This document shows positions 28,898 through 51,444 of a DNA stretch of 64,000 nt, in pieces; position 1 is the stretch's first letter; each line of letters begins with the position of its first letter. The stretch spans positions 2,848,001 to 2,912,000 of the forward strand of contig CAXXHB010000003.1 in assembly GCA_963664815.2 (NCBI GenBank), in the 5' to 3' direction. The position numbers and the translations under genes were made by a program. Source of the DNA: Spirochaetota bacterium. GTDB lineage: Bacteria > Spirochaetota > UBA4802 > UBA5550. The notes beneath the pieces are model-generated. The model was not told where the DNA came from. It ran no database searches and saw nothing but the letters and a program-made list of their open reading frames with translations.

Positions 28898-28921
28898 ATC
28901 TTCACTCCATCAATACAATTT

Positions 28922-29704: not shown

Positions 29705-30034
29705 TCGATGAGATATATCTTTCTTATATCTACATATGTTTTATCACTATTGATATTAATTACATTCAGATACAAAAAAATTGCATGTTTAAAAAACTGT
29801 TTTATAGTAATAAACAAATATTTATTTTATTTAATATGGTGCAAAATAACTTGACTGAAATCTGTAAAAAATATACAAAAATTCAACTTCGTAAAAACTC
29901 GGTGATAAATCAACATTATATCCGGTATAAAGATGAAGATATTTTATCTTTCAGTTTAACCATGCGTTTTTTAACAACCAGAATATAATGTATTCACAAC
30001 AACATTCCCTGATTATTTACTTACTGGAGATCAT

Positions 30035-35006: not shown

Positions 35007-36074
35007 TCAGTTTTCAGGTAAACTGAAATAAAAAACTACATATTCACCCTGAACAGAATCAATCCACACTCTGCCCGCATGTTTTTCTATGATTTTTTTA
35101 CAGATATAGAGTCCTAACCCCGAACCTTTAATTCCTTCTGTTCCTTTCTGTTTTAATCTTCCGAATTTTGCGAAAAGCTTTGTTTCAGCATCATCTTTTG
35201 ATATCCCCACACCCTGATTATATATGGAGAAGATTATTTCATGGTCTTTTTCGAAAACAGAGATTTTAACTTCAGTTCCGTTACGTCCATATTTAATAGC
35301 GTTGTTAACAAAATTGGTTACAACTATCTGCAAAAGGTTTGGGTCCCCATGAATTTCAGGATGTATCTGATAATCAGTTACAACTGGCATATTTTTCAGA
35401 TTTGATGAGTATTCGGGTATTTCAAGAACAGGTTTAACTACATCATTAATGAAATCTATTTTCTGATTAAAGGATTCCATGTCATCCAGTTCCATTTTTG
35501 ACAAATCTATATAGCTTCGTATAATATCTTCAAGATACTGACAGTTCCTTATGATTGTTTCCAGTATTTCTTTCTGTTTTGGTTCTATATTGCCAAAGTA
35601 TCCCTTGGCAAGCGTCTGAGCCGTGGTATGAACAACTGCAACAGGGCTTTTAAGTTCATGAGAAACAATTGCCATTAAATCCAGCATATTTGTCTCGCTG
35701 TTTTCACTCGATTTGATTGCGTTATGTATTACATCCCGGAATTCATCCGGTGTAAACGGTTTGGGTATATAATCAAAAGCTCCCATTTTCAATGCTTCCC
35801 GAGCGGTCTCTGCAGTGGCAAATCCCGTAAAAATTACTACTTTAACATCAAGTTTTCTTTCTTTTACTGAACGAAGAACATCAATTCCGCTCATTCCAGG
35901 CATCATCAGGTCTGTAATAATCAAATCGTATTTTTCCTGATCAACCTTTATAAGGCCATCTTCTCCGGAATAAACAGTCTCTATATGATAATCCTCTCCT
36001 CTGAGAATTCTCAGGCAGCTTTTTAAAACAATATCTTCGTCATCTATTATCAGTATTTTTATCTGCTTATTCAT
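35007..36074 (-). CDS. Hybrid REC-HisKA-HATPase histidine kinase
   Basis: ILIIDDE...TDLMMPG...YIPKPF receiver; VSHELKSP H-box; NNAIKY; GSGLGL. Confidence 0.92.
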   Translation of the reverse strand: MNKQIKILIIDDEDIVLKSCLRILRGEDYHIETVYSGEDGLIKVDQEKYDLIITDLMMPGMSGIDVLRSVKERKLDVKVVIFTGFATAETAREALKMGAFDYIPKPFTPDEFRDVIHNAIKSSENSETNMLDLMAIVSHELKSPVAVVHTTAQTLAKGYFGNIEPKQKEILETIIRNCQYLEDIIRSYIDLSKMELDDMESFNQKIDFINDVVKPVLEIPEYSSNLKNMPVVTDYQIHPEIHGDPNLLQIVVTNFVNNAIKYGRNGTEVKISVFEKDHEIIFSIYNQGVGISKDDAETKLFAKFGRLKQKGTEGIKGSGLGLYICKKIIEKHAGRVWIDSVQGEYVVFYFSLPEN

Positions 36075-36178: not shown

Positions 36179-36218
36179 TGATTGATAAAATGATACCAAA
36201 GTATCATTTTATCAATCA
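36179..36218. terminator. 18-bp perfect inverted repeat after the hydrogenase/response-regulator operon (terminator or operator)
   Basis: TGATTGATAAAATGATAC-caaa-GTATCATTTTATCAATCA. Confidence 0.5.
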
Positions 36219-36237: not shown

Positions 36238-36639
36238 CTATACAAATTTTTTTATCTTTTCAATAAGCTCATCAATATCCACAGGCTTAGTGAGAAAATC
36301 GCTTATATTTGGTAAAAAACTCTGTTCCGCATTAAGAGAAAAACGGGAATTAGTTACCTGATCAATAGCGGTAAGCATTATTATAGGAATGTCTTTAACT
36401 ACCGCATACTTTGATCCTTCTCTTTTACTGCGAATCTGATAGACAGCTTCAAAACCGGCCGTATCTGTTTCCATCATAACGTCAAAGACAACAAGATCAG
36501 GCTTGTCAGAAAGTACTTTTTTCAATCCCTCTGTACCGCTAAATGCTTCAATAACATCAAGATTATTCATTTTAAGCGCCTGCGCCAGAGTAGCGACAAG
36601 ATCTTTATCGTCATCAACAAGAAGTATTTTTTTCGACAT
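36238..36639 (-). CDS. Single-domain response regulator
   Basis: ILLVDDD, FDVMME, IIMLTA and FLTKP; GAGGAG RBS directly after the small-subunit gene. Confidence 0.92.
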   Translation of the reverse strand: MSKKILLVDDDKDLVATLAQALKMNNLDVIEAFSGTEGLKKVLSDKPDLVVFDVMMETDTAGFEAVYQIRSKREGSKYAVVKDIPIIMLTAIDQVTNSRFSLNAEQSFLPNISDFLTKPVDIDELIEKIKKFV

Positions 36640-36651
36640 AGTCACTCCTCC

Positions 36652-37182
36652 TCAATTATCCAGCATTTTATAAATGACGTTTCTGTTTTCCCATGCTTTA
36701 TTCCTTTCGTAAACATCTATCGGGAATTCCATCTGCTTAAGCTCAACAGGCGCAACCTGTTTATCAACAAGTCCAAGCGCAAGAGCAACACCATATATTA
36801 TAGCTTCCGGTCTTGGAGGACATCCCGGGATGAAATAGTTTACAGGAACAACACCAGTCGCTCCACCGGTAACATTATAAGTATCAAACCAGCAGCCGCC
36901 GCCTGTTGCACATGAACCTATTCCGAAAACAAGCTTCGGATTAGGGAGAGCATCATAAGCTTTCTTTACCAGGGGAAGCGTCGGTCTTGTAACCGCCCCG
37001 GAAAGAAGCATAACATCCGCATGTCTGGGAGAAGCAACAAGCTTCATCCCGAACCTTTCAACGTCATAATAAGGAGTAAGGACGTTGAGTATCTCTATAT
37101 CACAGCCATTACACGCGCCTGTATTACAGTGGTAAATCCATAATGACTTGCCGAATATTTTCTTTGAAAGATTCGTAAACAT
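36652..37182 (-). CDS. hycG: Group 4 [NiFe]-hydrogenase small subunit (HycG/NuoB-like)
   Basis: GACNGCDIE, SPRHAD, GSCA and IPGCPPRP. Confidence 0.9.
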   Translation of the reverse strand: MFTNLSKKIFGKSLWIYHCNTGACNGCDIEILNVLTPYYDVERFGMKLVASPRHADVMLLSGAVTRPTLPLVKKAYDALPNPKLVFGIGSCATGGGCWFDTYNVTGGATGVVPVNYFIPGCPPRPEAIIYGVALALGLVDKQVAPVELKQMEFPIDVYERNKAWENRNVIYKMLDN

Positions 37183-37184
37183 AC

Positions 37185-37730
37185 CTATTCTCCTAATTTC
37201 GCAGGTCTTTTATAGTTTGCAGTTTTCTTCAGCATCTCTGTATCGAAATGATCAGTTGTCTGTCTTATTAATGCCCGCGCTTCGATGTTATCATATCTGT
37301 ATCCGAAAAGATCCAGTCTGTCTATCATATTCTTATTTTCCATATCGTAACATCTTCCACATCTCTGGCATGTAAGCATAAAGAGTTCCATGCTTTCAGT
37401 CAAATCCTGTTTATCTCCTGTTGCTGTTTCAAACTTGTCAGTCATAGTTATAGCTTTTTCAGGACAAACATCGGCACATCTTCCGCAGTATGTACATCTC
37501 GATGCATCATAAACCATCAGCCTTATTTCCTGACATATGTCCCGCACTAATATTGTTCTGGCAGGGCAATGATTCGCACACCCTCCGCAACCGATACACT
37601 TTTCATGATCCCAGTATGGCATTCCCCGGAAATTTTCAGGTACAGGAACTTTTTCAAACGGATAGTTCAGAGTAACCACGCCCGGCTTCATTACCATTAA
37701 GACCTGTTTTATTTTACTTGTGAGCCACAT
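37185..37730 (-). CDS. hycF: Hydrogenase 2x[4Fe-4S] subunit (HycF/NuoI-like)
   Basis: TLNYPF...FRG, CIGCGGCANHCP, CTYCGRCADVCP and an extra CQRCG. Confidence 0.85.
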   Translation of the reverse strand: MWLTSKIKQVLMVMKPGVVTLNYPFEKVPVPENFRGMPYWDHEKCIGCGGCANHCPARTILVRDICQEIRLMVYDASRCTYCGRCADVCPEKAITMTDKFETATGDKQDLTESMELFMLTCQRCGRCYDMENKNMIDRLDLFGYRYDNIEARALIRQTTDHFDTEMLKKTANYKRPAKLGE

Positions 37731-37747
37731 AGTTTTCCTCCTTCTCC

Positions 37748-38647
37748 TTATATCCCGTACACTGATAAGCCTACAGCAACCAATGCTACAATTATAAGTG
37801 AAACATAATATTTCACAGCCTGGTCAATCCTGAGCCTCGGATTCGTCGAACCTATCAGAGCAATAAATACATAGACGCACGCTATTTCCATAAGCTGTAT
37901 AACTAAATCCAGAGCGTAAATCCCTGTATAAAGAAACGGTATGAAAACAAGGACAAATAACGCCGCATAAAACATCTGTTTCAACATCATTGAATATTTA
38001 AAAAGCGCATAGTTGGGGCCGCTATATTCAATAAATGGCCCTTCAAGTATTTCCTGTTCCGCCTCTGCTATATCAAAAGGCAACTTACCGACAAAAGCCT
38101 GTAAAGCCATCAGGTAGAGTACCAGCATAATTACTACTGCCCAGCTATAACCGTTATTCATTACGCTGAAAATAACATCATCAATACCAAGACTCTTTAC
38201 CTTTACAGCGCCGACAAAAAATGTCATCGCCAGAACAGGTTCCACAAGAATCATAGTAATCATCTCCCTGCTCGCACCCATCAGAGCAAATGTATTCTTG
38301 CTCGCTAACGCTCCGATAAGAATTGATACTCCTCCGAGAACAAGAAGATAAATTATTGTTATAACATCCCCGTATCCCGTCATGAAATTTGCCTTATATC
38401 CAAGCGGAATAAAACAAATTACCGTGAGAACTGCTGCGAAAGACATCATTGGAGCAATTTTGAAAGCCCAGTTACCGACATTAAAATTTTCTTTTCCCAG
38501 AAGCTTGATTATATCGTAGTAGGGCTGAATTACCGGCGGACCCATCCTCGACTGAACCTTTGCCGTGATTTTTCTTACAATACCCTCAAACAGAGGTGCA
38601 AGAGCAAGGAATATAACAAGGTTGATCAAAACATATACTATATCCAT
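37748..38647 (-). CDS. hycD: Hydrogenase membrane subunit (HycD/NuoH-like)
   Basis: RKITAKVQSRMGPP, DIIKLLGKE, PFDIAEAEQE, EYSG and PRLRIDQ. Confidence 0.88.
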   Translation of the reverse strand: MDIVYVLINLVIFLALAPLFEGIVRKITAKVQSRMGPPVIQPYYDIIKLLGKENFNVGNWAFKIAPMMSFAAVLTVICFIPLGYKANFMTGYGDVITIIYLLVLGGVSILIGALASKNTFALMGASREMITMILVEPVLAMTFFVGAVKVKSLGIDDVIFSVMNNGYSWAVVIMLVLYLMALQAFVGKLPFDIAEAEQEILEGPFIEYSGPNYALFKYSMMLKQMFYAALFVLVFIPFLYTGIYALDLVIQLMEIACVYVFIALIGSTNPRLRIDQAVKYYVSLIIVALVAVGLSVYGI

Positions 38648-38659
38648 AATTCACTCCCC

Positions 38660-40330
38660 TCACTTATTACCGCGTGATATAAATTCTAATTCAGACTTTG
38701 TCATTAATCTGTTATTGCCGGATCCTACATTTATCACCTCTACTCTATCCGTACATGAAAAGCAGGGGTCGATGCTCCCTACAATAATCGGGAAGTCCGC
38801 AAACTGATTATTAAGCAGCATAGCTGGTATTGCCTGAAGATTCGGATATGTGGGGGCACGCACTCTCCACCTGTCGGGACGATTTTCCTCTCCAGTAATT
38901 ACGAAATGCACAGATTCACCCCTGGGAGCCTCGACTACAGAAATTCCCTGTTTAAGAGCAGGAATGGCTGCATCAAGTTCAGTTAGTATTGGTCCCGCTG
39001 GCATTTTATCAAGTATCTGACGCATAATGCTGATTGATTCGTATATCTCAAGTATTCTCACCAGAACAGTTCCCCAGACATCGCATGTGTCAACTACAGG
39101 AACATCAAACTTCAGTTCGCTGTATGCTGCATACGGGTGATCTCTTCTTGCGTCGATATCAACTCCCCTTGCCCTGGCAACCGGACCGACGAGGCTCCAC
39201 CTGATCGTTTCCTCTTTTGTTATACAGCCGACTCCTTTTGTTCTTTTATGTATCGCAGTGTCGCCTATAATTGATTTATGTATAACTCTTGTTTCCTCTT
39301 CTACTTTTTTAATCACATTGAGAATGTCAGCTGACAACTCTGCCGTTACATCACGTCTTACACCTCCGACAATGACCATACCGTAAGTTTTTCTGTTCCC
39401 GGTCATTCTTTCACTTAGCCACATCAGCTGTTCACGAACTCTCCATGCCTGCATAAATACAGTATCAAAACCGATAAGATGCCCTGCTACACCCAGCCAA
39501 AGCAGATGTGAATGGAGTCTTTCCAGTTCAAGTACAAGGCTTCGCAGGTATTTTGCCCTTTCAGGAACGGTTATTCCCGCAGCCATTTCCACCGACTGAG
39601 AGTATGCTGTGGCGTGCACTGAACCGCATATACCACAAATTCTTTCTGCGATAAATGGTATTTCGTTATAGCTTACCTGGCTTTCACAAAGTTTCTCAAT
39701 ACCACGGTGAGTCATAAATCCTCTGTAATCACAACCTTTTATCGTTTCACCGTCTACATATACTGCAAATAATGCAGGTTCATGAAGAGCGGTATGAAAC
39801 GGACCTACTGGCACCATAGATGTTCCTTCAGGACATTCATCAAGCTGATATGCAACGTCTTCCGCAGAGGGTGGAACCATGTTATATGGCACTTCCTTCC
39901 TCAGAGGAAACACGTCTGATGGCCAGTCGTCTGCTACAATAAGCTTTTTCGGTTTTGGATGTCCGGTAAATTTCATTCCGAGCAGATCCATATACTCACG
40001 CTCAGACCATCCTGCTCCCGGAATATCAGGAGTAATTGAGTCCATCACCGGATTATTCCCCGGCACAGCAGCCCTCAGAAGCAGAATAAAGTTGTCCCTG
40101 TCGAATCCGAAAGTATGCACAAGGCCTATATTACCATCACGTGCTATCTTGTCGTAACCTATACTTACAAGATATCTTCCGCCAAGTGCAACTATCTCGT
40201 TGGACACGTCTCTGACTTTATCAGTTTTAATATCTATAAACAATCTTGTGGCAACAGGAGATTCACTGTTTACAATACTGCTGCCGAATTTATCTTTTAG
40301 CGTCTTTAATACTCTTTCCAATGAGTTCAT
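38660..40330 (-). CDS. hycE: Group 4 [NiFe]-hydrogenase large subunit (HycE-type, NuoC/D-like fusion)
   Basis: N-terminal WSERE..DLLG..F.GHP domain; L1 ERICGICGSVH; L2 DPCFSCTDR followed by a cleavable C-terminal extension. Confidence 0.92.
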   Translation of the reverse strand: MNSLERVLKTLKDKFGSSIVNSESPVATRLFIDIKTDKVRDVSNEIVALGGRYLVSIGYDKIARDGNIGLVHTFGFDRDNFILLLRAAVPGNNPVMDSITPDIPGAGWSEREYMDLLGMKFTGHPKPKKLIVADDWPSDVFPLRKEVPYNMVPPSAEDVAYQLDECPEGTSMVPVGPFHTALHEPALFAVYVDGETIKGCDYRGFMTHRGIEKLCESQVSYNEIPFIAERICGICGSVHATAYSQSVEMAAGITVPERAKYLRSLVLELERLHSHLLWLGVAGHLIGFDTVFMQAWRVREQLMWLSERMTGNRKTYGMVIVGGVRRDVTAELSADILNVIKKVEEETRVIHKSIIGDTAIHKRTKGVGCITKEETIRWSLVGPVARARGVDIDARRDHPYAAYSELKFDVPVVDTCDVWGTVLVRILEIYESISIMRQILDKMPAGPILTELDAAIPALKQGISVVEAPRGESVHFVITGEENRPDRWRVRAPTYPNLQAIPAMLLNNQFADFPIIVGSIDPCFSCTDRVEVINVGSGNNRLMTKSELEFISRGNK

Positions 40331-40364
40331 AACTTTCCTCTCACCTTTAGTTTAGGAACCAACA

Positions 40365-42236
40365 CTACTTTACGTTCCCGCCTGTCCACCACATGAAATG
40401 CTTGAATGCATGATACATGCTGCTCGCCTTATACCTTGTCGTTTCATTCAATTCCTGGTATCCGCACATCCATACAGGAGCAGTCCTTTCAACGGATCCT
40501 GCAGATTTTTTAAACAGATACGCAATTACGAATGCTATGGCAAATACTGCAAGCAACATGGCCGGAACTGCTATTGAAGAAACACTTATGCCTGCGCCGG
40601 GCAGATTAATCTGCACGCCCATTGCCGACTCAACTATAGAATTGTTAACCTGCATCCCCCTGAATAAATTCGTGACAATAGAATGTCCTGAATTTTTAAA
40701 TATGCTGATTATTGTCTCGAAATACAGGAATGGGAGCAATCCCTGAATAATACAAAGAGCTGCCAGTATGAATTTCGGAAAAAGCATCAATACAGGAACT
40801 TCCTTCACTTCCTTTTTTGTATTCCACTCGTGTCCGGTTGATGTGAATGTCATTCCAAAAAATTTCACGTACGAAGCCAGTGTTATTGCGCTTGTCATCA
40901 GCGCTATTATTCCGAATATAACAAGAAATCCTACTTCAGTTCCACCCAGAATATCAGCAGAAATAATAGACCACTTGCTCATAAACCCGCTGAATGCAGG
41001 AATACCGGCTATAGAGAACGCTGCAATCCCGGCTATAACAGTTGTGGCAGGCATGAACTTGATAAGTCCACCCAGTTTATTCAAATCTTTTAAACCTGTT
41101 GCATACTGGACACTACCGGTTGAAAGGAACAGAAGACCTTTAAAAACCGTATGGTTAAGAGTATGATAAATCGCTCCTATCATAGCGATAGCAGCTAAAA
41201 CCTGCAGGAACGGATTAGGGCAGCTCAGCATAAAAAGTGCGCTTCCTATTCCAAGCACTATATAACCCATCTGACCGATTGAATGGTAAGCATGAAGTCT
41301 CTTTGCATCATGCTGTTTTAAAGCCTGTGTAGTTCCTATGAAAAGTGAAACAACACCGAATGTCGCAACAAGTGCTCCCCAGAATTTTCCGTTAAATACA
41401 AAACCGTTTCCTTCCGGAACAATCCAGAAAAGGGTTCTGATAATTCCATAGACACCTGTCTTAATCATAACGCCTGAAAGCAACGCACTTATAGGTGACG
41501 GCGCAACAGAGTGGGCATCCGGAAGCCAGAGTTGCCCGAATGGGAACACACCAGACTTTAATCCGAAACCGACAAGCAGCAATCCATATACCACATATAC
41601 ATGAGCTCCTCTCACAACACTGAATTTTTCTGTAATATGACCAATTGAGTCTCCCATTGTCACGCCGGGTATAAGCATTGTTCCGCCAATTATTAAGAGC
41701 CATGCCAGTTCCATAAGTATAAGATACTTATTGGCGCTCCTTACAACGCCCTTTTCCCTTGATTCAAACCTTATCAGAAAGTATGATGCTATTGTCATAA
41801 GCTGCCATGCAATAGTGAAGCCGATTGAAAGGTCATCAACAGTAAGCAGGACAATCATACCCAGTACAAATATCGGGAGATTAAAATAAAACCCTCTCAG
41901 ACTGTAATCATGATAGTGTTCCATATATTCTATTGAATATAATGAACTTATCACAGCCATAAAGGATACAATGGCTACAAAGAATGCGGAAAAACTATCC
42001 ATAAGGAAATAAATCCCGAATGCCCCAAGAGTAATTATTTTTGACTCCTGCGGAGCAGCTTCAAAAATTACCGCATAACATGTATACAGGAGAAGAATAG
42101 CAGCAGTCGCAACCAGTGCGAAATTTATCCAGCCGGCAAGCTTCCTTTTTGTTCCCGCTACTATGGGGGAAACAACTGCTGAAGCTAAAAGTATAGCCAT
42201 GGCCGTCATTAAGTTTCCGTAAATATCGATATTCAT
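40365..42236 (-). CDS. hyfB: Antiporter-like membrane subunit (HyfB/HycC, NuoL/M family)
   Basis: GLKSGVFPFGQLWLPDAHSVAPSPISALLSG, KRLHAYHSIGQMGY, NHTVFKGLLF and AGIPAFSGFMSKW. Confidence 0.85.
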   Translation of the reverse strand: MNIDIYGNLMTAMAILLASAVVSPIVAGTKRKLAGWINFALVATAAILLLYTCYAVIFEAAPQESKIITLGAFGIYFLMDSFSAFFVAIVSFMAVISSLYSIEYMEHYHDYSLRGFYFNLPIFVLGMIVLLTVDDLSIGFTIAWQLMTIASYFLIRFESREKGVVRSANKYLILMELAWLLIIGGTMLIPGVTMGDSIGHITEKFSVVRGAHVYVVYGLLLVGFGLKSGVFPFGQLWLPDAHSVAPSPISALLSGVMIKTGVYGIIRTLFWIVPEGNGFVFNGKFWGALVATFGVVSLFIGTTQALKQHDAKRLHAYHSIGQMGYIVLGIGSALFMLSCPNPFLQVLAAIAMIGAIYHTLNHTVFKGLLFLSTGSVQYATGLKDLNKLGGLIKFMPATTVIAGIAAFSIAGIPAFSGFMSKWSIISADILGGTEVGFLVIFGIIALMTSAITLASYVKFFGMTFTSTGHEWNTKKEVKEVPVLMLFPKFILAALCIIQGLLPFLYFETIISIFKNSGHSIVTNLFRGMQVNNSIVESAMGVQINLPGAGISVSSIAVPAMLLAVFAIAFVIAYLFKKSAGSVERTAPVWMCGYQELNETTRYKASSMYHAFKHFMWWTGGNVK

Positions 42237-42730
42237 TTACAAACTCCTTTGTTACAATTTAAAGCATCTGTTATTATCTGAATCAGGACATCGGCACTCT
42301 CCCTTACTGCCGGAGAAAGCTCAGCCCCGAAATCTATATTATCAACCACAACTCCGAGCAGATAAGTCTCTTTATTATGCTCGTTAAATATTTTGCCTGA
42401 CATCTTCAGAGCGAGTTTATGAGTTGAAAGTGTCCCCGAAAGTTCCTCAAACTCATCATCAAGCTTGCCGAAAAGAATAGAGCCTGTTTCCGCATCAGCC
42501 TTAACTGCATCAATAACCACAATGCTTTTACAGGGAAGCTCTGCAAGTTTATAAACATACGCTTCAATAACATCCTCGACGTTAAAAATCATATGCCCGT
42601 TACCAGCAGCCCTTCTTACAGACTCGATGATAAAGAGACCAACAGCGTCATCGCTTTTAAGGAGATTCCCCATACCAACGATACAGCAGTTGTCACTTAC
42701 CACATTTTTTATTTCCGACAGAAGATTCAT
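42233..42730 (-). CDS. hycI: Hydrogenase maturation endopeptidase (HycI-like)
   Basis: IVGMGNLLKSDDAVG, VIDAV and LSTHKL. Confidence 0.85.
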   Translation of the reverse strand: MNLLSEIKNVVSDNCCIVGMGNLLKSDDAVGLFIIESVRRAAGNGHMIFNVEDVIEAYVYKLAELPCKSIVVIDAVKADAETGSILFGKLDDEFEELSGTLSTHKLALKMSGKIFNEHNKETYLLGVVVDNIDFGAELSPAVRESADVLIQIITDALNCNKGVCK

Positions 42731-42732
42731 AT

Positions 42733-43572
42733 TTATATCACTTCCCCAAGTGTTTTTATCTGTTTATATGTATAAACGGGACCATCGGTACAAACAAGAG
42801 TTCTCCCTATGGCGCAATGCTGGCACTTTCCAATACCGCATTTCATATGCCTTTCAAGAGTTGAGAGAATACAATCATCCTTAAGGCCTCTTTTCATCAG
42901 CTCACCGATTACAGAATTGAACATCACCGGAGGACCACATACAAATGCTACAGTGTTCTCCACAGGTACTTTCGCTTTTTCTATAAGATTATGAACATAC
43001 CCTGTCTCTCCAGTCCATCCAGCTTCTGCCTGGTCAACCGTTACATAACATTCAAAACCGGGAATTTTAAGCCATTCTTCTATATTATACTGATACATCA
43101 GATCTTTAGGAGTTCTCGCTCCGAGGAGAACTATTATTCTTCCGAAATCATCTCTGTGTTTGAGAGCGTGTAAAATCGATGACCTCAGCGGAATCAGACC
43201 GATACCACCAGCTACATATATAAGGTTCTTTCCTTTTAGTTCCGTAAAAGGAAAACCATTACCAAAAGGTCCCCTGATCCCTACTTTATCTCCCGGCTGA
43301 AGTTCAAACAGTGCTCCGGTTACCTTTCCGACTTTTTTAATCGAAAGGTGAAACCTGTCCCCTTCAGGGCATGTTGGCAGAGAAAAAGCCGCTTCACCTG
43401 ATCCGAAAATACTCAGCATAACTATCTGACCCGATTTCCATTTGAAATTCTTCTCAATTTCAGGATTATCAAATTTGATATAGAACGTTCTTACATCCTG
43501 AATCTCATCCTTAATTTCCTCGATGGTTGCTATTTCCGGTATTGTTACTATTTTATTATCCATTTCGCTCAT
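42733..43572 (-). CDS. FAD/NAD(P)-binding [2Fe-2S] oxidoreductase (AsrB/HydG/FlxA-like)
   Basis: RGPFGNGF, VAGGIGLIPLRS, VCGPPVM and ERHMKCGIGKCQHC...CTDGPV. Confidence 0.9.
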   Translation of the reverse strand: MSEMDNKIVTIPEIATIEEIKDEIQDVRTFYIKFDNPEIEKNFKWKSGQIVMLSIFGSGEAAFSLPTCPEGDRFHLSIKKVGKVTGALFELQPGDKVGIRGPFGNGFPFTELKGKNLIYVAGGIGLIPLRSSILHALKHRDDFGRIIVLLGARTPKDLMYQYNIEEWLKIPGFECYVTVDQAEAGWTGETGYVHNLIEKAKVPVENTVAFVCGPPVMFNSVIGELMKRGLKDDCILSTLERHMKCGIGKCQHCAIGRTLVCTDGPVYTYKQIKTLGEVI

Positions 43573-43581
43573 GGCTATCAC

Positions 43582-44637
43582 CTACTCTATAATTTCCCGT
43601 CTGATGTATGTAACAACATTCGGCAGACCTATATCGCCGGGGCATACCCACTGGCATCTTCCGCATCCTACACATCCCGGCCTCATATACTTCTTTGACT
43701 GTGAATATGAAAGCTTGCAGAAAAATCTCTTGTTTCTTCTGTCTTCAACGGGATGCCGGGGATTATGGTCACCAGCCATTTTTGTATATCCTTCGAACGA
43801 GCAGGAGTCCCACGTCCTCAACCTGTCAGTTGAACCATTGAAATTATTATGGTCTTCAATATTGAAACATGAACAGGTTGGGCATACGAATGTACATGCA
43901 CCACATTCAAAACACTGTTTACCTATATACTCCCAGACTTCCTCTTTAATAAAACCAGTTGTAACCCTGTTCATAACACGTGATATCCACGCTTTGTTAT
44001 CTGTCGCAACCAGTTCAAAAAGCGATATGGATTTATCAACTGCTTTGCCTTTAGCGTCAGAGTGTTCATTCCCCGCTTTTTTAAGCCCCATTTTTTCAGC
44101 GAACGCACGCCCTTTTTCACTGCCAGCCTCAACAAGATAAACATCGCCAAGATCAGTAAGGTTGAGATCATACCCCTCTTCAGCTGACGGGCCGCTGTCA
44201 GTACATACACAAAAGCACTGTTTGAATGGGACAGTACATGTATTTGTTACAATAAACATTCTCTTTCTATGTTCGAGGTAAACTTCATCAACAAATTCCT
44301 GTCCCATAAAAAATCTATCAAGGACTATTATACCTGAAAGATCACATGGACGAAGTCCGAACAATGCTTTGCTCGAAGTATCAAAATCAGGAATCATATC
44401 AACTTTTTTTGCGCCCCTATCATACTTATACTCAAGTATCCTTTCAATCTGGGGAAACACCACATTTTTAGGGGGTATAGAAGGTATTTCGGCCGAAAGG
44501 CTAATCTCAGACGCATCTGCGACCTTATTAAAAAAGACCTGCTTAGAGTCCTTATCCACTATCGGGCCGTAAAGAGAATAGCTCTTTGCAAGCTCTTCGG
44601 CCAGCTTCATTACATTACTTTTTTCTATCAAATACAT
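43582..44637 (-). CDS. Fe-S protein (AsrA/HydB/FlxB-like)
   Basis: FGLRPCD, C...CFC, CFECGACTFVCPTCSC, WDSC and GCVGCGRCQWVCP. Confidence 0.9.
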   Translation of the reverse strand: MYLIEKSNVMKLAEELAKSYSLYGPIVDKDSKQVFFNKVADASEISLSAEIPSIPPKNVVFPQIERILEYKYDRGAKKVDMIPDFDTSSKALFGLRPCDLSGIIVLDRFFMGQEFVDEVYLEHRKRMFIVTNTCTVPFKQCFCVCTDSGPSAEEGYDLNLTDLGDVYLVEAGSEKGRAFAEKMGLKKAGNEHSDAKGKAVDKSISLFELVATDNKAWISRVMNRVTTGFIKEEVWEYIGKQCFECGACTFVCPTCSCFNIEDHNNFNGSTDRLRTWDSCSFEGYTKMAGDHNPRHPVEDRRNKRFFCKLSYSQSKKYMRPGCVGCGRCQWVCPGDIGLPNVVTYIRREIIE

Positions 44638-44639
44638 AA

Positions 44640-46640
44640 TTATATCCTCTCTATCCTGATTGGAATAATTGCGTCTTCTCCCTTATCAAAATCTTTATTA
44701 TGCTCAAGAAGGAATGAGGAGATCATCTCTCTTATAAAGTAAGGTACATATGCAGTTCCGGCCTTCACATCTTCAGATATTTTAACCGTGACATTCATTG
44801 ATCCGTGAGAAGAGGCTATTTTAACATTCCAATGTTCTCTCACCTGAAGCTTTGCCGCATCTTCTTTGCAGATTTCTATATATCCCATGGGATATACAAG
44901 AAGAGTTGCGTTATATTCCCTTTTAGGAATATAGGTTTTCTTCATCACATTATTCTGATGCCAGAAATGCTGCCCCTGTCCGGTGATGAGAAGTATCGGA
45001 TAATCTCCACCCGCTGCAGGAACTGCATAATTTCCTGTTACCGGAGCGAATTTAAATTTTTTACCACCAGCTGCCGCATCCAGTCTTTTGCATCCCTGCG
45101 GATACTTGTCATTGCATGGCCACTGCAACCCCAGTGATTTTTCAATTTTATCATAGGTCATGCCTGAATATGATGGTGTGAGTGAAGTTATTTCTTTAAA
45201 TACATCTTCAGCTGATGAGTATTTCCATGAAAGCGAAGCCTTAGCTGCAATCATCGGGAAAAGCTGCCATCCTGTCAGTACCTTCTGAAAAGGTTCAACT
45301 CTCTTTCGTGAAAGCTGCACTCTTCTTTCAGTATTAGTATAAGTTCCATCATCCTCAATAATACCGGCAACAGGTATAACTACATCGGCATATTTAACAA
45401 AAGGATTTTCGAATGTCCCGATATAAGCTACAAATTCCAGTGCTTCAATCTCTTTCGAGTATTTAACAATACCTTCGTCGTGGTCAGCCACAACAAGACA
45501 TTTTAGTTTTGAATTTCTGTCTGCCAGCAGCTTATAAACATCATTGCCGGCTTCTTTATTTAGCTTTACACCCCAGTTTTTTTCAAACTTCGCAACAGCA
45601 TCTGCATCGGAAAGTTTCTGAAAACCGGTAAGGATATCAGGAGCGGTTCCCATATCATATCCACCCTGAATGTTGCATATACCGGTTATTGGATTTGCAC
45701 CACAGTTTTCTTTCCCCATTTTTCCGGCAACAAGCAGAAGGTCATATATGTAGCTTACTGTGTCCTGATCAAGACCCGAAATTCCGGTGGACCAGAATGC
45801 CATTACTGACTTAGCTTTGCATATCTCTCCTGCAGTTTTTACTATCACATCGGATTCTATCCCCGTGAGAGAAGAAACATTATTCATATCAAGGTTACTT
45901 ACAGCAGTGGAAAATGCGTCAAATCCCTCTGCCGATTTATCCGCTAGCCCTTCAGCAATAATTGCCTTTGCCAGTGCTGCAAGAATGACTTTTTTTGATC
46001 CGGGCCTTATCTGCAGATGTATATTGCTGAGCTTCGCGATCTGAGAAGAAATGCTGCTGATAGTCACTACTTTTGTACCAGACATCTGGGCCTTATGGAT
46101 CTCACTTCCGATAATAGGATTCATTTTCGTAATATCAGACCCTACAACAAGTATAAATTCCGTCTTTGAAATATCCTCCAGGGATCCTGTCATCCCGGGA
46201 AATCCGGCACCGTCGTTCAGCACATTTATGCTGCCCCTGTGGCCCGATTCTGAATCAAGTGTAATATTATTTGTTTTAAATACACTCTTTGCCAGTTTTG
46301 AGAACAGATAATTATTTTCATTAGATGATCTTGGCGAAGCAAGAAATGCTATCTCTTCTGTAGATTTAGCACTGTACTTTGACATCTTTTCCATCATGAA
46401 ATTAATCGCTTCCTCGTAGCTGACATTTTTAAAATTGCCGTCTACTTTTATCATGGGTGAACTTATTCTCTGATCTGTCATAAGCAGTTCATGAAAATGC
46501 CATCCCCTGACACATAGCCTGCCTTTGCTTACCGGGTGGTTTCTTGACGAATAAACTCCGCAAACTTTACCATCTTTAATGTTGAGGTAGTTGCCGCATC
46601 CGGTTCCGCAGAAATTACATACTCCAGACTTATAATCCAT
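44640..46640 (-). CDS. FdhF-like molybdopterin-oxidoreductase-fold protein with non-canonical active site
   Basis: CNFCGTGC...LCVRG [4Fe-4S], SPRSSNE, TNN, DGTYTNTERRVQ and LQWPC. Gly replaces Cys/Sec and Thr replaces the catalytic Arg. Confidence 0.85.
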   Translation of the reverse strand: MDYKSGVCNFCGTGCGNYLNIKDGKVCGVYSSRNHPVSKGRLCVRGWHFHELLMTDQRISSPMIKVDGNFKNVSYEEAINFMMEKMSKYSAKSTEEIAFLASPRSSNENNYLFSKLAKSVFKTNNITLDSESGHRGSINVLNDGAGFPGMTGSLEDISKTEFILVVGSDITKMNPIIGSEIHKAQMSGTKVVTISSISSQIAKLSNIHLQIRPGSKKVILAALAKAIIAEGLADKSAEGFDAFSTAVSNLDMNNVSSLTGIESDVIVKTAGEICKAKSVMAFWSTGISGLDQDTVSYIYDLLLVAGKMGKENCGANPITGICNIQGGYDMGTAPDILTGFQKLSDADAVAKFEKNWGVKLNKEAGNDVYKLLADRNSKLKCLVVADHDEGIVKYSKEIEALEFVAYIGTFENPFVKYADVVIPVAGIIEDDGTYTNTERRVQLSRKRVEPFQKVLTGWQLFPMIAAKASLSWKYSSAEDVFKEITSLTPSYSGMTYDKIEKSLGLQWPCNDKYPQGCKRLDAAAGGKKFKFAPVTGNYAVPAAGGDYPILLITGQGQHFWHQNNVMKKTYIPKREYNATLLVYPMGYIEICKEDAAKLQVREHWNVKIASSHGSMNVTVKISEDVKAGTAYVPYFIREMISSFLLEHNKDFDKGEDAIIPIRIERI

Positions 46641-46833
46641 ATCCAACCTCTAAGCCAGTATTCTTAATTATCTACATGACATCATAATTACTTCTAATTG
46701 TAACTATATGCCATATACAATATCCAACCATTAGACCACTGATTTTCTTTGAATAACCGTTGCTGAAACTCATTTCCATTCCGGCCGTAGGAAATAATAT
46801 AGCTAAGCAGTTATACATTAAAAATTTTATTTG

Positions 46834-46904
46834 AATATAGACTTAAATAAAATGAAAGTCAATGGGGAGATAATCTTTTTAAGGAGTGGGGGAATTCCCC
46901 TACT
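46834..46904 (-). promoter_or_regulatory. Sigma70-like promoter of the hydrogenase operon with an upstream palindromic site
   Basis: Minus strand TTGACT-N17-TATATT (46862-46834); 20-bp palindrome AGTGGGGGAATTCCCCTACT with one mismatch (46885-46904). Confidence 0.65.
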
Positions 46905-46907
46905 TTT

Positions 46908-49796
46908 TTATGAGGTTTTTTCAAGAATATACTGAACGGCAAACTGAATTAATTCTGAAGATGAATCTATATTCAGCTTGCTCTTTATCTTTTCACGGTA
47001 ATTTTCTACTGTTTTCACACTGATACGAAGCTTATCTGCGATGTTTTTGTTTCCAAGACCATGGCCAATCAGCTGGAATACCTCAAACTCCCTGTCTGTC
47101 AGAGAGTCAACCAATACGGAATTTTCATCTCTGCGCGGGGATGAAAGCTTATCAAGCAGTTTTTCCTTGAGGCTGTCGCTCATGTACTGCCTGCCTTCAA
47201 GAACTATTCTCACTGCATTTATAATTATACCGGGATGTTCATTCTTCATAACAAATCCTCTGGCACCTGCACGAATTGCCCTTTCGGCATATAATGATTC
47301 ATCATATATTGATATTACAAGTATAGGAATCTCCGGATATCTCTCCCTGCAGGCTTTGATCAGGTCTATCCCGTTAGTGCCGCTTAAAGAAATATCAACT
47401 GTCAGTATGTCCGGTTTAACTCTCCCCAGAGCTTTTAGTGCATCATCTGCCGTGCCGGCTTCCCCGATAATAAAGAGATCCTTCTCCATTTCAATAATCT
47501 GCTTCAATCCATGTCGCACTATCGGATGGGCATCTACAAGAAATACACCCGATCTGGTTTTATCCGGATTCTTTTTAAGGAACCTGACCCTTTTTGTATT
47601 CTCTATCTTTAAAGGTTCACCTGTAATTCTTAAGCGGCATGACAGGCTTAACCCACCTCCGGGATTACCCTTTACTTCTACCGTTGCTCCAATAAGCCAT
47701 GATCTGTACCTTACAAGGCTCAGAAAAAGATTATTCCTGTCTTTATCTATTTTTTCAAAATCTTTCCCATCGTCCCTGATTTCAATAATATATACATTAT
47801 GATCTTTTGAGGCATTAATTAAAATATTCTCCGCTTCATTATTTTCAATTGAGTTGAGTATAGATTCTTTAATTATGTAATAAAGATTTGAATTTTCAAG
47901 CTTACCGTTTATAATAATTGATTCGTCCCACTTTACGAGTATATTGACGTTTGACGTTCCACGTACACTCTCTTTAAGGTTCTCTACTGCAGCGTGTAGA
48001 CCGCCCGGACTTATATCAACAGGGCTAAGCTCTTTTGCAATCTCCCTTGTTTTGCTTACAGCACGGTCCACAAGATCTATTATTTCATCGATCTCGGGAA
48101 TGGTATCCGGCACGGAATCTCCGAACTTCACTTTAAGCAGTTCAGCTTTAAATATTATACCGGCAAGATGCTGAGCCAGTCTGTCGTGAAGGTCCTGACC
48201 TATTTTAAGCCTTTCTGCAGCATTTGTTTCCATCACCACTTTTTCCAGACGTTTTCTTTCAGTTATATCTATTCCTACAAAGAAAATAAAATCGACATCT
48301 CCATCCATCCGTATAAGCGGTTTTCCATGCCATTCCACAAGTATTATATCACCATCTTTTGCAATTATCGGATATTCAGAAACGGTCGCTTTTTTTCTCT
48401 CAACCATGTTTTTAAAATCTTTTCTGATTATATCCCGGTCAGCCTGATTAAACAGAAGTTCAATATAATCTCTCCCGACAACCTCTCCAAGAGTGTAGTC
48501 AAGAGCGATCAGCATTGCCCGGTTCATGGTTAGTATGTTGCCGGACGAATCAAGCGCTATATAAAAAGAGGGATTAATATCTTCCAGGCTCTTGAGGAAA
48601 TCTTTCCCTTTCCGGATGGTTTCCTTAGCACGCAATTCAGCAGTAACATCCCTCTCTATAATTGAGGCTCCTATGATATTTCCGGTTGAATCGTATACAG
48701 GGGAGATATTCATTGAAAGATAAATCTGTTTCCCGATTGAGGTCATGCCGACTGTTTCATAATGATTGATCTTTCCACCCTGCTTTACTCTCTCAAGAAG
48801 GAGCGGAAAATAATCCGGCTGATACGGAGGTATCAGCAGAGAATACGAACACCCATTAATCTCATCGAAGGAATACCCGAAAATCCTTTCTGCACTGCTA
48901 TTCCAGCTTACAATCAGGCTGTCGAATGTAACTCCGATTATTGCGTCTTCTGAATCCTCCAGAAGCGATGAAAGCTTTTTACGCAGCTCATCTATATTCC
49001 TTTTCTCCATCACATCATGGAAAACACTGAGTATTGCATAATCATTGTTATATTCCACAAGCCTGCTGCTGACCTCGACAGGAACAATTTCACCTTCCGC
49101 GTTCCTTATTGAAGTTTCAATCCTTTTTCCATCCCTTGTCAGGTCGCTCATAATACTTGATGATATATCAGTAAGCGAATGATAGTTGAAAAGATTCAGA
49201 ACCGAGAAACCAACCACTTCCTCTTCTTTTAAACCAAGGTATTCAAGCCCGCTGAAATTAATCTCAAGCACTATTCCTTCAAGATCATGAATTACAACAA
49301 TATCAATAATGCTGTTGAACAGCAATTTGTAATTGTTTTCAGTTCTGTTCAGGGTTTGAGTTCTTTCTACAAGAATATTTTCCAGTTGCTGGTTTTTTTT
49401 ACGGAGTTTATCTTCGGATGTCTTAATCCGGAGCATTGCCTTCACCTGTGCGGCCAGTTCAATTTCATCAATTGGTTTTGTCAGAAACGCATCCGCACCG
49501 GATTCAAGCCCCTCCGCCCTTTTAGCAGAAGTAGTGTCCGAAGCCGTAAGTAAAATCAATGGTATCCCTTTGGTCTCCTCATCAGATTTGAGAAGCCTGC
49601 ATGCTTCAACACCATTAATTCCCGGCATTACATAATCAATTATAAGAAGGTCAGGCTTTTCACATTTTACATTCGATACGCATTCCATTGCAGATGTGAG
49701 TGTAACAATATCAGCATCCCTGAAAAATCTGTTTAACAGCGCTTTAAGCGTAATGAGGTTATCCCTGCTGTCATCTATAGCTAATATCTTGAACAT
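46908..49796 (-). CDS. Multidomain regulator REC-PAS-PAS-PAS-HisKA_3-(degenerate HATPase)-REC-LuxR HTH
   Basis: IDDS...IDYVMPG...TKP; three PAS blocks (ending HDV, RDVT, DITE); GQDLHD; VDISLSG; LTDREFEV...ISVKTVENYR. Confidence 0.9.
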   Translation of the reverse strand: MFKILAIDDSRDNLITLKALLNRFFRDADIVTLTSAMECVSNVKCEKPDLLIIDYVMPGINGVEACRLLKSDEETKGIPLILLTASDTTSAKRAEGLESGADAFLTKPIDEIELAAQVKAMLRIKTSEDKLRKKNQQLENILVERTQTLNRTENNYKLLFNSIIDIVVIHDLEGIVLEINFSGLEYLGLKEEEVVGFSVLNLFNYHSLTDISSSIMSDLTRDGKRIETSIRNAEGEIVPVEVSSRLVEYNNDYAILSVFHDVMEKRNIDELRKKLSSLLEDSEDAIIGVTFDSLIVSWNSSAERIFGYSFDEINGCSYSLLIPPYQPDYFPLLLERVKQGGKINHYETVGMTSIGKQIYLSMNISPVYDSTGNIIGASIIERDVTAELRAKETIRKGKDFLKSLEDINPSFYIALDSSGNILTMNRAMLIALDYTLGEVVGRDYIELLFNQADRDIIRKDFKNMVERKKATVSEYPIIAKDGDIILVEWHGKPLIRMDGDVDFIFFVGIDITERKRLEKVVMETNAAERLKIGQDLHDRLAQHLAGIIFKAELLKVKFGDSVPDTIPEIDEIIDLVDRAVSKTREIAKELSPVDISPGGLHAAVENLKESVRGTSNVNILVKWDESIIINGKLENSNLYYIIKESILNSIENNEAENILINASKDHNVYIIEIRDDGKDFEKIDKDRNNLFLSLVRYRSWLIGATVEVKGNPGGGLSLSCRLRITGEPLKIENTKRVRFLKKNPDKTRSGVFLVDAHPIVRHGLKQIIEMEKDLFIIGEAGTADDALKALGRVKPDILTVDISLSGTNGIDLIKACRERYPEIPILVISIYDESLYAERAIRAGARGFVMKNEHPGIIINAVRIVLEGRQYMSDSLKEKLLDKLSSPRRDENSVLVDSLTDREFEVFQLIGHGLGNKNIADKLRISVKTVENYREKIKSKLNIDSSSELIQFAVQYILEKTS

Positions 49797-49800
49797 TTTC

Positions 49801-50940
49801 TTATTTAATCCATTTACTGATTATCTGAATGAAAGCCCCTATATTGAATGGCTTACGGATAACATCGTTAAATCCGGATCTTACCAGCTTTTCCCTGTCA
49901 TTTGCAATATCAAGCGCAGTAAAAGCTATAACAGGTATATCATCTTTAACAAAAAGATTTTTAATATTTCTTACAAGAGAAAGCCCGCTGATATCGGGTA
50001 GAGTCAGATCAAGAAGTATTATATCCGGCTTTATCTTCTCCAGCAGATCAAGTCCTCTTCCTCCATTTTCAGCATGATACACTTTTCCAAGTCCTTTAAA
50101 CTCATGTTCAATAATTGCATTAACAGGTATTATATTATCTATATCATCATCTATTACAAGCATTATAAACTCCCTGCCTACACGATGATTGAAATCTTCA
50201 GCCATTTCTCCTTCATCACTGTTTTTAATATTATTCTGCTTGCAGGGAATAGAAAATGAAACAATCACATCTCCTTTACAACCGATAGAGAAAAGAGCTT
50301 CGCCATTCAGATGACCCGCACAGATTGAAGCAAACTCCAGCCATAAAACTGAACTTGCACTGTAACCCTTTTCAATAATTTTGTATTTGTCAAATACCAT
50401 CAGATCATTTATTGAATCATCAGATTTATTTAAAGATGCTGTTAATAGTAAATTCGAAGAATGCGATATTGTTTTAAAATAAATTAAAGGAATATCATCC
50501 CCTGAGGAAAGAAAAAATAAACATATATTTTCAAGCATCCTGCATAATACATCTTTCTCCGGAATAAAAAATGATGATCCAAAATCTATATCGCTGACCA
50601 GAGAGCATCGGGTGTTGCGAACAATTGGAAGAATTGACAATAAAGAATTATCCAGTATTTCCCTTAATTCATCATGTGATTCTACATTCTGTTTTTCATT
50701 CTGATTGGATTTCTTTGAATAAGACAGATTATCGATAAAGGAGAGTTCCTCCATTATATATAAAATCTTTTTACCGTTTCTTTCAATAACTTCAAGATAT
50801 GAATTTTCATCATCTGTAAAACTGTTCCCGGAACCTCTTAAAAGGATGCCGGACAGATTAATTACAGGATTGAGTGAATTTTTAATTTCATGAGTTACTG
50901 ATGAGAAGAGCTCTCTATTCTTTGAATAATTTTTTTCCAC
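49801..50940 (-). CDS. HisKA-(degenerate HATPase)-REC protein
   Basis: VTHEIKNSLN H-box; no recognisable N/G boxes; IDDD...LDLTLPD...RKPF receiver. Confidence 0.82.
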   Translation of the reverse strand: MEKNYSKNRELFSSVTHEIKNSLNPVINLSGILLRGSGNSFTDDENSYLEVIERNGKKILYIMEELSFIDNLSYSKKSNQNEKQNVESHDELREILDNSLLSILPIVRNTRCSLVSDIDFGSSFFIPEKDVLCRMLENICLFFLSSGDDIPLIYFKTISHSSNLLLTASLNKSDDSINDLMVFDKYKIIEKGYSASSVLWLEFASICAGHLNGEALFSIGCKGDVIVSFSIPCKQNNIKNSDEGEMAEDFNHRVGREFIMLVIDDDIDNIIPVNAIIEHEFKGLGKVYHAENGGRGLDLLEKIKPDIILLDLTLPDISGLSLVRNIKNLFVKDDIPVIAFTALDIANDREKLVRSGFNDVIRKPFNIGAFIQIISKWIK

Positions 50941-50954
50941 AGATCAGCCGGTTA

Positions 50955-51443
50955 TTATATATTTAAAGATTTCTTCATCAGATAAAGTATATTATAAAAA
51001 ACAGTTATACCGCCGGTAAATCTTTCTTTTATTACACTGTTCCCCATACGGTCAATATCAGATTTAATATCTTTAACTTTGCTGTCAAGCTCATTATGTA
51101 TTCTGAGAGTCTCTTCCCGACCGAGCTTTGAAACAACCATGCCGAGATTATTATTTATTGTAGTTATGTCTGCAAACATCTCCCTGTAACTGCGTTTCAA
51201 ATCATTATCCATATTACGCAGAAGTACTTCCACTATCGCAATTCGGACAATTCGATATCCCTTTTGCACCTGAGCAGAATCGCCATGAGAAACAGATGCA
51301 GGATAAAGCAGACAGTAAATCTCACCCAGCTTTATCATGGAATCCAGACTAAAATCAAAATCCCCATTAAGCTTCAACAGCGATTCCCTGAACAATTCAG
51401 GTTCTACAGTATTTTCAAGAATTTCATATATTACACGATTCAT
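50955..51443 (-). CDS. Hypothetical helical protein within the signalling operon
   Basis: 162 aa; starts 1 nt after the kinase stop and ends 14 nt before the next gene. Confidence 0.7.
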   Translation of the reverse strand: MNRVIYEILENTVEPELFRESLLKLNGDFDFSLDSMIKLGEIYCLLYPASVSHGDSAQVQKGYRIVRIAIVEVLLRNMDNDLKRSYREMFADITTINNNLGMVVSKLGREETLRIHNELDSKVKDIKSDIDRMGNSVIKERFTGGITVFYNILYLMKKSLNI

Positions 51444-51444
51444 A

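Follow-up and report, generated by a model that had tools for sequence, protein, structure and literature searches.

The 64,000-nucleotide stretch of Spirochaetota bacterium DNA analysed here (contig CAXXHB010000003.1, positions 2,848,001 to 2,912,000; hereafter the window, to whose whole length positions refer unless another contig or locus is named) carries a compact minus-strand operon which, judged by its sequence, encodes a genuine group 4 [NiFe] hydrogenase with a dedicated maturation protease. The same operon encodes a formate dehydrogenase (FDH)-like protein of the FdhF fold that has lost the residues of the formate site, and a pair of proteins related to the beta and gamma subunits of Pyrococcus furiosus sulfhydrogenase I. 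With moderate confidence, we read the product as a reversible membrane-bound NAD(P)H:H+ oxidoreductase, the electron input of which would be NAD(P)H-linked and not formate-linked. Genes were taken from a list of open reading frames (ORFs) and assigned with Pfam and NCBIfam profiles. By the ORF coordinates, nine genes span positions 36652–46646, and adjacent genes are separated by anything from a 4-base overlap to a 34-base gap. A preliminary description of the stretch, made from the letters alone, had listed nine tightly packed minus-strand genes ending at 46640; all nine are found in the ORF list at those places, and 46640 is the ATG start of the first, FdhF-like gene. This ATG is also the start of an identical 666-residue database entry (P0001), whereas an alternative TTG start lies two codons further upstream, at 46646.

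The large subunit of the hydrogenase (38660..40330, on the minus strand like all operon genes below; 556 residues) is a fusion of NuoC- and NuoD-type parts, as in HycE. It contains both Ni-binding CxxC pairs, the first in RICGICGSVH at residue 230 (CGIC, 232–235) and the second in DPCFSCTDR at residue 521 (CFSC, 523–526), and the latter is followed by a 27-residue C-terminal extension that aligns with the tail of Escherichia coli HycE. A HycI-type maturation endopeptidase (42233..42730, 165 residues) scores 83.1 bits with TIGR00072 against a cut-off of 47.45. The HycG/NuoB-like small subunit (36652..37182, 176 residues) has the motifs for a single proximal cluster, and the HycF/NuoI-like 2x[4Fe-4S] subunit (37185..37730, 181 residues) displays, in addition, a conserved C-x2-C-x2-C near residue 121. 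The membrane part consists of a HycD/NuoH-like subunit (37748..38647, 299 residues) and a single antiporter-like subunit of the HyfB/MbhH/MrpA type (40365..42236, 623 residues; Pfam Proton_antipo_M, top NCBIfam model HyfB). Thus, by Pfam and NCBIfam, the operon holds the full set expected of group 4, namely, a NuoB-like one-cluster subunit, a NuoI-like 2x[4Fe-4S] subunit and NuoH-like and antiporter-like membrane subunits. Among orthologue matches, the large subunit keeps both Ni-binding pairs in 72 of 72 cases and the small subunit its motifs in 71 of 71, although these counts were drawn from two overlapping locus sets and the matches do not all represent independent genomes. In a comparison limited to solved chains, the large subunit is closest to E. 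coli HycE (7z0s_E, 411.7 bits), followed by MbhL of P. furiosus (260 bits). Identity to the E. coli proteins is 45% for HycG, 37% for HycE, 36% for HycD, 33% for HycF and 25% for HycC. HypB, HypC, HypD and HypE are encoded at other places of the genome. Since the Ni-Fe binding cysteines are in place and the enzyme has its own protease, a hydrogenase-like complex of the Ehr/Mbx type was rejected, as the preliminary description had done on account of the two CxxC motifs, the C-terminal extension and the protease. The same description had considered HycB to be missing, and this also holds: E. coli HycB, HycH and HycA have no match within the window, the operon has no unassigned ORF space, and the tblastn search with HycB returned only two weak matches, both elsewhere in the genome beside other molybdoenzymes.

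The first gene (44640..46646; 668 residues from TTG, 666 from ATG) encodes a MopB subunit of the FdhF/FdhA fold with the Pfam domains PF04879, PF00384 and PF01568, which begins directly with the MopB Fe4S4 domain. We take Sec/Cys140, His141, Arg333 and Lys44 to be the residues on which E. coli FdhH depends for catalysis, and use that numbering. When E. coli FdhF is read with selenocysteine (Sec, U) and aligned with the window protein, U140 corresponds to Gly135, R333 to Thr321 and K44 to Arg47, and only the His that follows the ligand is kept. The top PDB match, an F420-dependent FDH (9t1s_L), gives the same picture. Furthermore, the ligand position is occupied by Gly in all 16 loci of relatives that cover the site, and by Gly (78) or Trp (2), never by Cys or Sec, across 80 loci from public genomes. 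The position of R333 holds Thr, Ala, Ser or Pro, and in no case Arg, in each of the 78 loci that cover it, and the His next to the ligand is replaced by Gln, Glu or Leu in 7 of the 80. Lys44 is replaced by Arg in 80 of 80 loci, a count that is not independent, as one of the two peptide patterns used in the search contains that residue. All four cysteines of the N-terminal [4Fe-4S] site are unchanged throughout an alignment of 13 sequences.

The Pfam scores of the FdhF-like protein fall between those of active FDHs and that of NuoG. E. coli FdhF scores 336.9 bits with PF00384 and 96.0 bits with PF01568, the dinucleotide-binding domain (model positions 2–110 of 110), and the free-standing FDH of a relative from the same family, G015, scores 258.4 and 98.2 bits (2–110 of 110). 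The corresponding values are 131.9 and 39.2 bits (27–78 of 110) for the window protein and 63.9 and 30.9 bits (18–81 of 110) for E. coli NuoG, which binds no pterin. The protein therefore combines a MopB fold devoid of a metal ligand with a degenerate PF01568 domain, as would a relic of the NuoG kind, but the N-terminal [2Fe-2S] and two-[4Fe-4S] region of NuoG, where that protein has Fer2_4, NADH-G_4Fe-4S_3 and Fer4_Nqo3, is not present in it. It is also the least conserved redox subunit of the operon, being 48–58% identical across the order, compared with 66–88% for the others. Because the ligand, Arg333 and Lys44 are all replaced, the Pfam scores are degenerate and identity is low, oxidation of formate by this subunit appears very unlikely, and the non-catalytic FdhF-fold protein of the preliminary description is recovered both in the window and across the 80 loci.

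These observations bear directly on the automatic annotation of the operon, according to which it would encode an ordinary formate hydrogenlyase (FHL), with the FdhF-like protein oxidizing formate and feeding the hydrogenase. Such a reading can draw on the HycE-like core, on the best NCBIfam model of the first gene product, formate dehydrogenase alpha (432.9 bits, although under the cut-off of 666), and on the label 'formate dehydrogenase major subunit' that some database sources attach to its relatives. Nevertheless, with neither a Sec/Cys ligand nor an equivalent of Arg333 in any of the 80 loci, with Lys44 replaced, with HycB absent and with a true Sec-dependent FDH encoded elsewhere in the genome, we consider it highly improbable. 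The genome contains seven ORFs of the MopB family, two of them with an in-frame TGA. One of these two, in L112:9723-14189 on contig C2, encodes an FDH alpha subunit that begins with a NuoG-like part; its in-frame TGA is a probable selenocysteine codon, and the gene adjoins one for a fusion of the NuoE/NuoF type. This is probably the real NAD-linked FDH of the organism.

The second and third genes encode the putative NAD(P)H module. The AsrA/HydB-like iron–sulfur (Fe-S) subunit (43582..44637, 351 residues; Pfam Fer4_22) has a single PDB match, the beta subunit of P. furiosus sulfhydrogenase I (9nez_B, 131.6 bits), to which residues 4–338 are aligned, and 17 of its Cys are invariant in 20 aligned orthologues. 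The AsrB/HydG-like flavoprotein (42733..43581, 282 residues; Pfam FAD_binding_6, NAD_binding_1 and DHODB_Fe-S_bind) has the gamma subunit of the same enzyme as its top PDB match (9nez_C, 186.4 bits). Its motifs for flavin adenine dinucleotide (FAD), NAD(P) and [2Fe-2S], namely, GGIGxIPLRS, CGPPxM and CG[IV]GKCQHC, are shared by all 82 orthologue matches. The AsrAB-like pair noted in the preliminary description is thus substantiated by the structural matches and by the conserved cofactor motifs. An anaerobic sulfite reductase, AsrABC, was considered and rejected because both proteins score well under the cut-offs of the equivalog models (141 bits against 323 for AsrA, 190.6 against 288.6 for AsrB) and no gene for the sirohaem subunit AsrC is found in or next to the operon. 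A predicted complex of HycF and the AsrA-like protein, computed from alignments of 20 rows each, scored 0.01 and 0.07 against a mark of 0.32, values that have no bearing on binding either way. Two database proteins which seemed to join the FdhF-like and AsrA-like parts in one chain (P0121 and P0122) were discarded, as long Arg/Pro/Ala-rich stretches without similarity lie between and after the matching parts; we read them as read-through of frameshifted high-GC DNA and not as fusions. The remaining fusions are AsrA+AsrB paralogues of about 30% identity, which merely repeat the arrangement seen in the sulfhydrogenase structure.

The operon is strongly conserved as a unit. Among 41 genomes of the same order, 30 have a match to the AsrA-like protein, and 25 have an orthologue of at least 68% identity. 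In 17 loci from 17 related genomes that were compared for gene order, all nine genes are present in the same order in 16, and the 17th locus ends at a contig edge after six genes. A wider scan of public genomes yielded 187 relatives of the FdhF-like protein; 80 of them were examined, all from metagenome-assembled genomes (MAGs) labelled as Spirochaetota/Leptospirales, Acidobacteriota/Aminicenantes, Thermodesulfobacteriota or delta-proteobacteria, Eubacteriales, or unassigned. Of these loci, 55 have at least 8.6 kb of downstream DNA and could be assessed, and 51 of the 55 contain all nine genes; by the thresholds used, one or two genes are missing from the remaining four, which include long-read MAGs with split matches. 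Four loci labelled Thermodesulfobacteriota, delta-proteobacteria or Proteobacteria (L086, L087, L091 and L097) have membrane-subunit genes upstream of the FdhF-like gene with the rest of the order kept; both such genes are there in L086 and L087, and only the HycD-like one is seen in the shorter L091 and L097. The preliminary description had proposed a search for the same synteny in other genomes, and had stated that its reading would fail if the asrAB-like genes were not conserved with the hydrogenase. They are strictly conserved with it, across several phylum labels.

This distribution also bears on whether the operon encodes one enzyme or two. The Hyc core might be an Ech-like, ferredoxin-dependent and ion-translocating hydrogenase, and the FdhF-like, AsrA-like and AsrB-like proteins a separate soluble oxidoreductase that is merely co-regulated with it. 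Indeed, the Hyc core has all six Ech-equivalent functions, and a module of this kind can stand alone: G015 encodes a free-standing FDH, with the Cys-His pair and the Arg intact, together with an AsrA-like and an AsrB-like protein and followed by a penicillin-amidase gene (L113:8451-12411), and AsrA+AsrB pairs without hyc genes occur in two other relatives (L028 and L029). On the other hand, in the assessable loci the version with the dead FDH is seen only beside hydrogenase genes. Moreover, the protease gene separates asrB from the membrane-subunit gene, and loci labelled Thermodesulfobacteriota have the module placed after the membrane genes and before hycE; the two gene sets are therefore interleaved and not simply juxtaposed. 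A soluble enzyme built around a dead catalytic subunit would, in addition, have no obvious acceptor. Taken together, we regard two separate enzymes as rather improbable. As for the three-gene unit of G015, its composition makes it a candidate NAD(P)-dependent FDH and, plausibly, the ancestor of the input arm of the window complex.

If the nine genes do encode a single NAD(P)H-linked complex, electrons would take the following route. NAD(P)H would reduce the FAD of the HydG/AsrB-like subunit, from which electrons would pass to the [2Fe-2S] cluster of the same subunit and then to the HydB/AsrA-like subunit with its [4Fe-4S] clusters, the order known from P. furiosus sulfhydrogenase I. From there they would reach the Ni-Fe site of the HycE-like subunit by way of HycF and HycG, as in E. 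coli FHL. Homology to these two solved systems makes a Fe-S path from FAD to the Ni-Fe site plausible. The FdhF-fold subunit would no longer oxidize formate; its full-length retention, [4Fe-4S] site included, would reflect a role as scaffold or side branch, much like the retention of the molybdopterin-fold part of NuoG in complex I. The membrane arm, HycD and one antiporter-like subunit, would be coupled to the reaction. By textbook potentials and under standard conditions, NAD(P)H-driven production of H2 has to overcome about 94 mV, and the reaction is thus expected to be reversible and tied either to the membrane arm or to a low H2 pressure. The complex might evolve H2 at low H2 pressure or at the expense of an ion gradient, or it might take up H2 and build such a gradient. 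The preliminary description had likewise proposed a membrane-bound NAD(P)H-to-H2 complex on an FHL chassis, of which the parts are borne out at the sequence level, while docking, substrate, direction and ion coupling are inferred.

Several observations weigh against this reading. First, the Hyc core by itself (the antiporter-like subunit, HycD, HycE, HycF and HycG) equals a complete ferredoxin-dependent Ech, so the NAD(P)H module need be neither the sole nor the direct electron donor. Second, the antiporter-like subunit is unusual. It is closer to MbhH (193 bits) and MrpA (172 bits) than to HycC (127 bits), and the Lys of transmembrane helix (TM) 7, the His/His/Lys positions of TM8 and the Lys of TM12 are kept, which, together with a Glu in TM5, are presumably the residues that matter, to go by work on complex I. 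The TM5 position, a Glu in E. coli HycC, MbhH and MrpA, is however a Gln (Gln145) in 74 of 74 sequences, and ion translocation could therefore be altered or absent. Third, the FdhF-like protein is always full length and has many invariant residues, including TYTNTERRVQ, which is shared with active enzymes of the FdhA type. Fourth, biosynthesis of the molybdenum cofactor (Moco) is encoded in the genome (MoaC, MoeA), and MoaC is found in 23 of the 25 relatives that bear the cluster, the two others being fragmented assemblies (91% and 63% complete). Full-length retention, invariant residues and Moco biosynthesis together leave room for a pterin-dependent activity on another substrate. Finally, a literature search returned no biochemical characterization of, or experimental work on, this architecture.

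The third and fourth points lead to a different arrangement, in which the complex would have three working arms. The Fe-S network would then have one branch each for the Ni-Fe site, the NAD(P)H flavoprotein and a functional FdhF-fold site, which might be a ligand-less pterin acting on some other substrate or a dock for ferredoxin, and the enzyme would couple H2, NAD(P)H and a third couple by confurcation or bifurcation. Arsenite oxidase shows that molybdenum can work in the absence of a protein ligand, and the full length of the FdhF-like subunit, its invariant cluster cysteines and the Moco biosynthesis genes are all consistent with such a site. The same was proposed, according to the main text of PMC13582414, for group 4b clusters with SHI-beta/gamma (sulfhydrogenase I) proteins and an Fdh that lacks Cys/Sec, on the strength of AlphaFold models. 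However, the catalytic Arg and the Lys near the cluster are replaced along with the ligand, and the neighbouring His varies in the 7 loci mentioned. The dinucleotide-binding domain scores like that of NuoG and not like the full-length domains of active FDHs, and the subunit stands out as the least conserved of the redox proteins. Moreover, the window operon is compact and devoid of extra ferredoxin subunits, unlike the published clusters as the main text describes them. A three-armed enzyme is accordingly, in our view, unlikely, though worth keeping in mind.

Returning to the NAD(P)H-linked oxidoreductase, a more far-reaching form of it is that the complex represents a living counterpart of the step from FHL to complex I. 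It would be an NAD(P)H:H+ oxidoreductase coupled to protons or sodium, with a NuoG-like stripped subunit, a retained Ni-Fe site, a family-wide Gln in TM5 and a receiver protein that would act on the complex rather than on transcription. We put this forward only tentatively and doubt that all of it will hold. The architecture does parallel a proposed origin of complex I, in which a hydrogenase core was joined by an NADH module and a dead molybdoenzyme. Were the NAD(P)H-linked reading correct, membrane-bound group 4 hydrogenases would gain their first NAD(P)H-coupled class; their subgroups are all formate-, CO- or ferredoxin-coupled in the HydDB table. The complex would also offer fermenters and syntrophs a means to dispose of NAD(P)H as H2 that needs no electron-confurcating [FeFe] enzyme. 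In practical terms, annotation pipelines label the first gene as a formate dehydrogenase and would read the operon as an FHL, which is probably wrong for the related loci of uncultured anaerobes found here as well (187, with 80 examined).

The operon appears to extend by one more gene. A CheY-like single-domain response regulator (36238..36645, minus strand, 135 residues) starts 6 bases past the small-subunit gene and is followed, 20 bases downstream, by a terminator-like hairpin with an 18-bp stem (36179..36218, minus strand). At the other end, a promoter-like site, TTGACT-17-TATATT (46834..46862, minus strand; 10 of 12 consensus positions), is located within the 261 bases that precede the FdhF-like gene. 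The promoter-like site and the hairpin, both of them matches from a consensus scan, bracket all ten genes, which are best read as one transcription unit for the membrane-bound group 4 [NiFe] hydrogenase. Asp55, Thr92 and Lys120 of the receiver are conserved in at least 95% of 55 sequences, and it therefore looks phosphorylatable. In 15 of the 17 loci of relatives the receiver gene comes next, and it is present in 53 of the 55 assessable public loci; it also follows in the three of L086, L087, L091 and L097 in which the DNA extends past the small-subunit gene. Directly upstream of the operon, a hybrid receiver-PAS-histidine kinase-receiver-LuxR protein (46908..49796, minus strand, 962 residues) is a candidate regulator, although a relative on the same strand occurs in only 26 of 63 assessable loci, a less constant linkage than that of the receiver.

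Two-component genes are dense around the operon (35007–36074, 46908–53361 and 53776–58435) and include hybrid kinases and PAS, GAF and Cache sensors, with an HDOD protein at 58827–60317. Elsewhere in the databases, AsrA-like Fer4_22 domains about 30% identical to the window protein are fused to histidine-kinase domains (P0136–P0143 and P0155), and a receiver domain is also part of P0136–P0139 and P0141–P0143. Their domain composition suggests that these fusion proteins are possible redox-sensing kinases.

The organism is well supplied with hydrogen enzymes. Contig C3 carries, about 215 kb before the window, a complex-I-like cluster (L111:6112-13351) with two antiporter-like subunits and a NuoH-like subunit, a 201-residue protein without a Pfam match, a NuoCD-type subunit devoid of any CxxC and a fused Fer4+NuoB protein; by these features it is an Ehr-type hydrogenase-like complex, in contrast to the window operon. 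Two further [NiFe] large-subunit genes and three [FeFe] hydrogenase genes are located at C3:2961422-2962831, C2:670638-671897, C3:3472773-3473678, C3:3477075-3477938 and C3:3565432-3566109. Within the window, a gene for a DUF362 protein is followed by one for a 534-residue polyferredoxin-like protein with Fer4_5 and several Fer4 motifs (14709–17251). A row of flagellar genes (FliI, FliH, FliG, FliF, FliE and a rod protein; 431–6893, minus strand) is as expected for a spirochaete. Two stretches have a low content of guanine plus cytosine, 24001–26000 (0.316) and 28001–30000 (0.303), compared with about 0.37 elsewhere, and the ORF at 24239–25102 has no Pfam match.

Among experimentally known systems, one close to the hydrogenase core is E. 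coli FHL-1 (FdhF with HycBCDEFG, hydrogenase 3; 7Z0S/7Z0T; HydDB group 4a). Both have a fused NuoC–NuoD large subunit with the two CxxC pairs and a C-terminal tail of the cleaved type, as well as HycI, HycD, HycF and HycG, and in both an FdhF-fold subunit is co-encoded. The window operon differs in that HycB, HycH and HycA are missing, the FdhF-like protein lacks U140, R333 and K44, an NAD(P)H flavoprotein pair is added, and the antiporter-like subunit, only distantly related to HycC, is closer to MbhH and MrpA. An FHL of group 4a has a catalytic FdhH with Sec/Cys, His141 and Arg333, of which the window protein, with Gly135 and Thr321, keeps only the His, and the HycB missing here is the ferredoxin that connects FdhF with HycF; group 4b is defined in HydDB by a multi-subunit Mrp module, whereas the operon has one Proton_antipo_M protein, one NuoH-like protein and no small Mrp subunits. 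Ech (group 4e) resembles the core in its six functions and in the single antiporter-like subunit, whereas the window operon has a fused, HycE-like large subunit, three extra redox proteins and a dedicated protease.

The input module finds its counterpart in P. furiosus sulfhydrogenase I (group 3b; 9NEZ/9NF0), to whose beta and gamma subunits its two proteins align at near full length, with a common Cys pattern and the same motifs for FAD, NAD(P) and [2Fe-2S]. In sulfhydrogenase I the electrons of the beta/gamma pair enter a soluble group 3b hydrogenase by way of a three-cluster small subunit, whereas the pair in the window is encoded with a membrane-bound group 4 core that has a one-cluster small subunit. 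Complex I (NuoEFG on NuoBCDHI-L) is comparable in that a NAD(P)H flavoprotein and a stripped molybdopterin-fold protein, the dead domain of which scores in Pfam near that of E. coli NuoG, accompany a core of the NuoB/C/D/H/I/L type. It differs in three respects: the flavoprotein of the window operon is of the FNR/PyrK type and not NuoF, the N-terminal 2Fe-2S/4Fe-4S domain of NuoG is missing from the FdhF-like protein, and an intact Ni-Fe site is found where complex I binds quinone.

Related gene clusters are already in print. According to the main text of PMC13582414, about half of the Fdh proteins in group 4b clusters lack Cys/Sec and co-occur with SHI-gamma and SHI-beta homologues, and AlphaFold models suggest a three-way Fe-S network with possible bifurcation or confurcation. 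In the main text of PMC6349859 and its preprint, an 'enigmatic' cluster from Saganbacteria RX5A is described, which comprises a hydrogenase, Mrp-like subunits, an unclassifiable molybdopterin oxidoreductase, cooF, asrA and asrB, and for which an Mbh-like function was guessed. As described there, these clusters resemble the window operon in combining a group 4 hydrogenase with genes of the asrA/asrB type and with a molybdopterin protein that cannot be recognized as an FDH, and they are known from sequences and models only. The preliminary description had left open that its architecture might already be characterized; by these accounts the related clusters have been noticed in silico, and the window operon is an experimentally uncharacterized variant of the FHL-type group 4 hydrogenases. 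By the same main-text descriptions, the published clusters have several antiporter subunits of the Mrp type and an extra ferredoxin of the CooF type, whereas the window operon makes do with a single antiporter-like subunit and without an added ferredoxin, and has a receiver gene linked to it.

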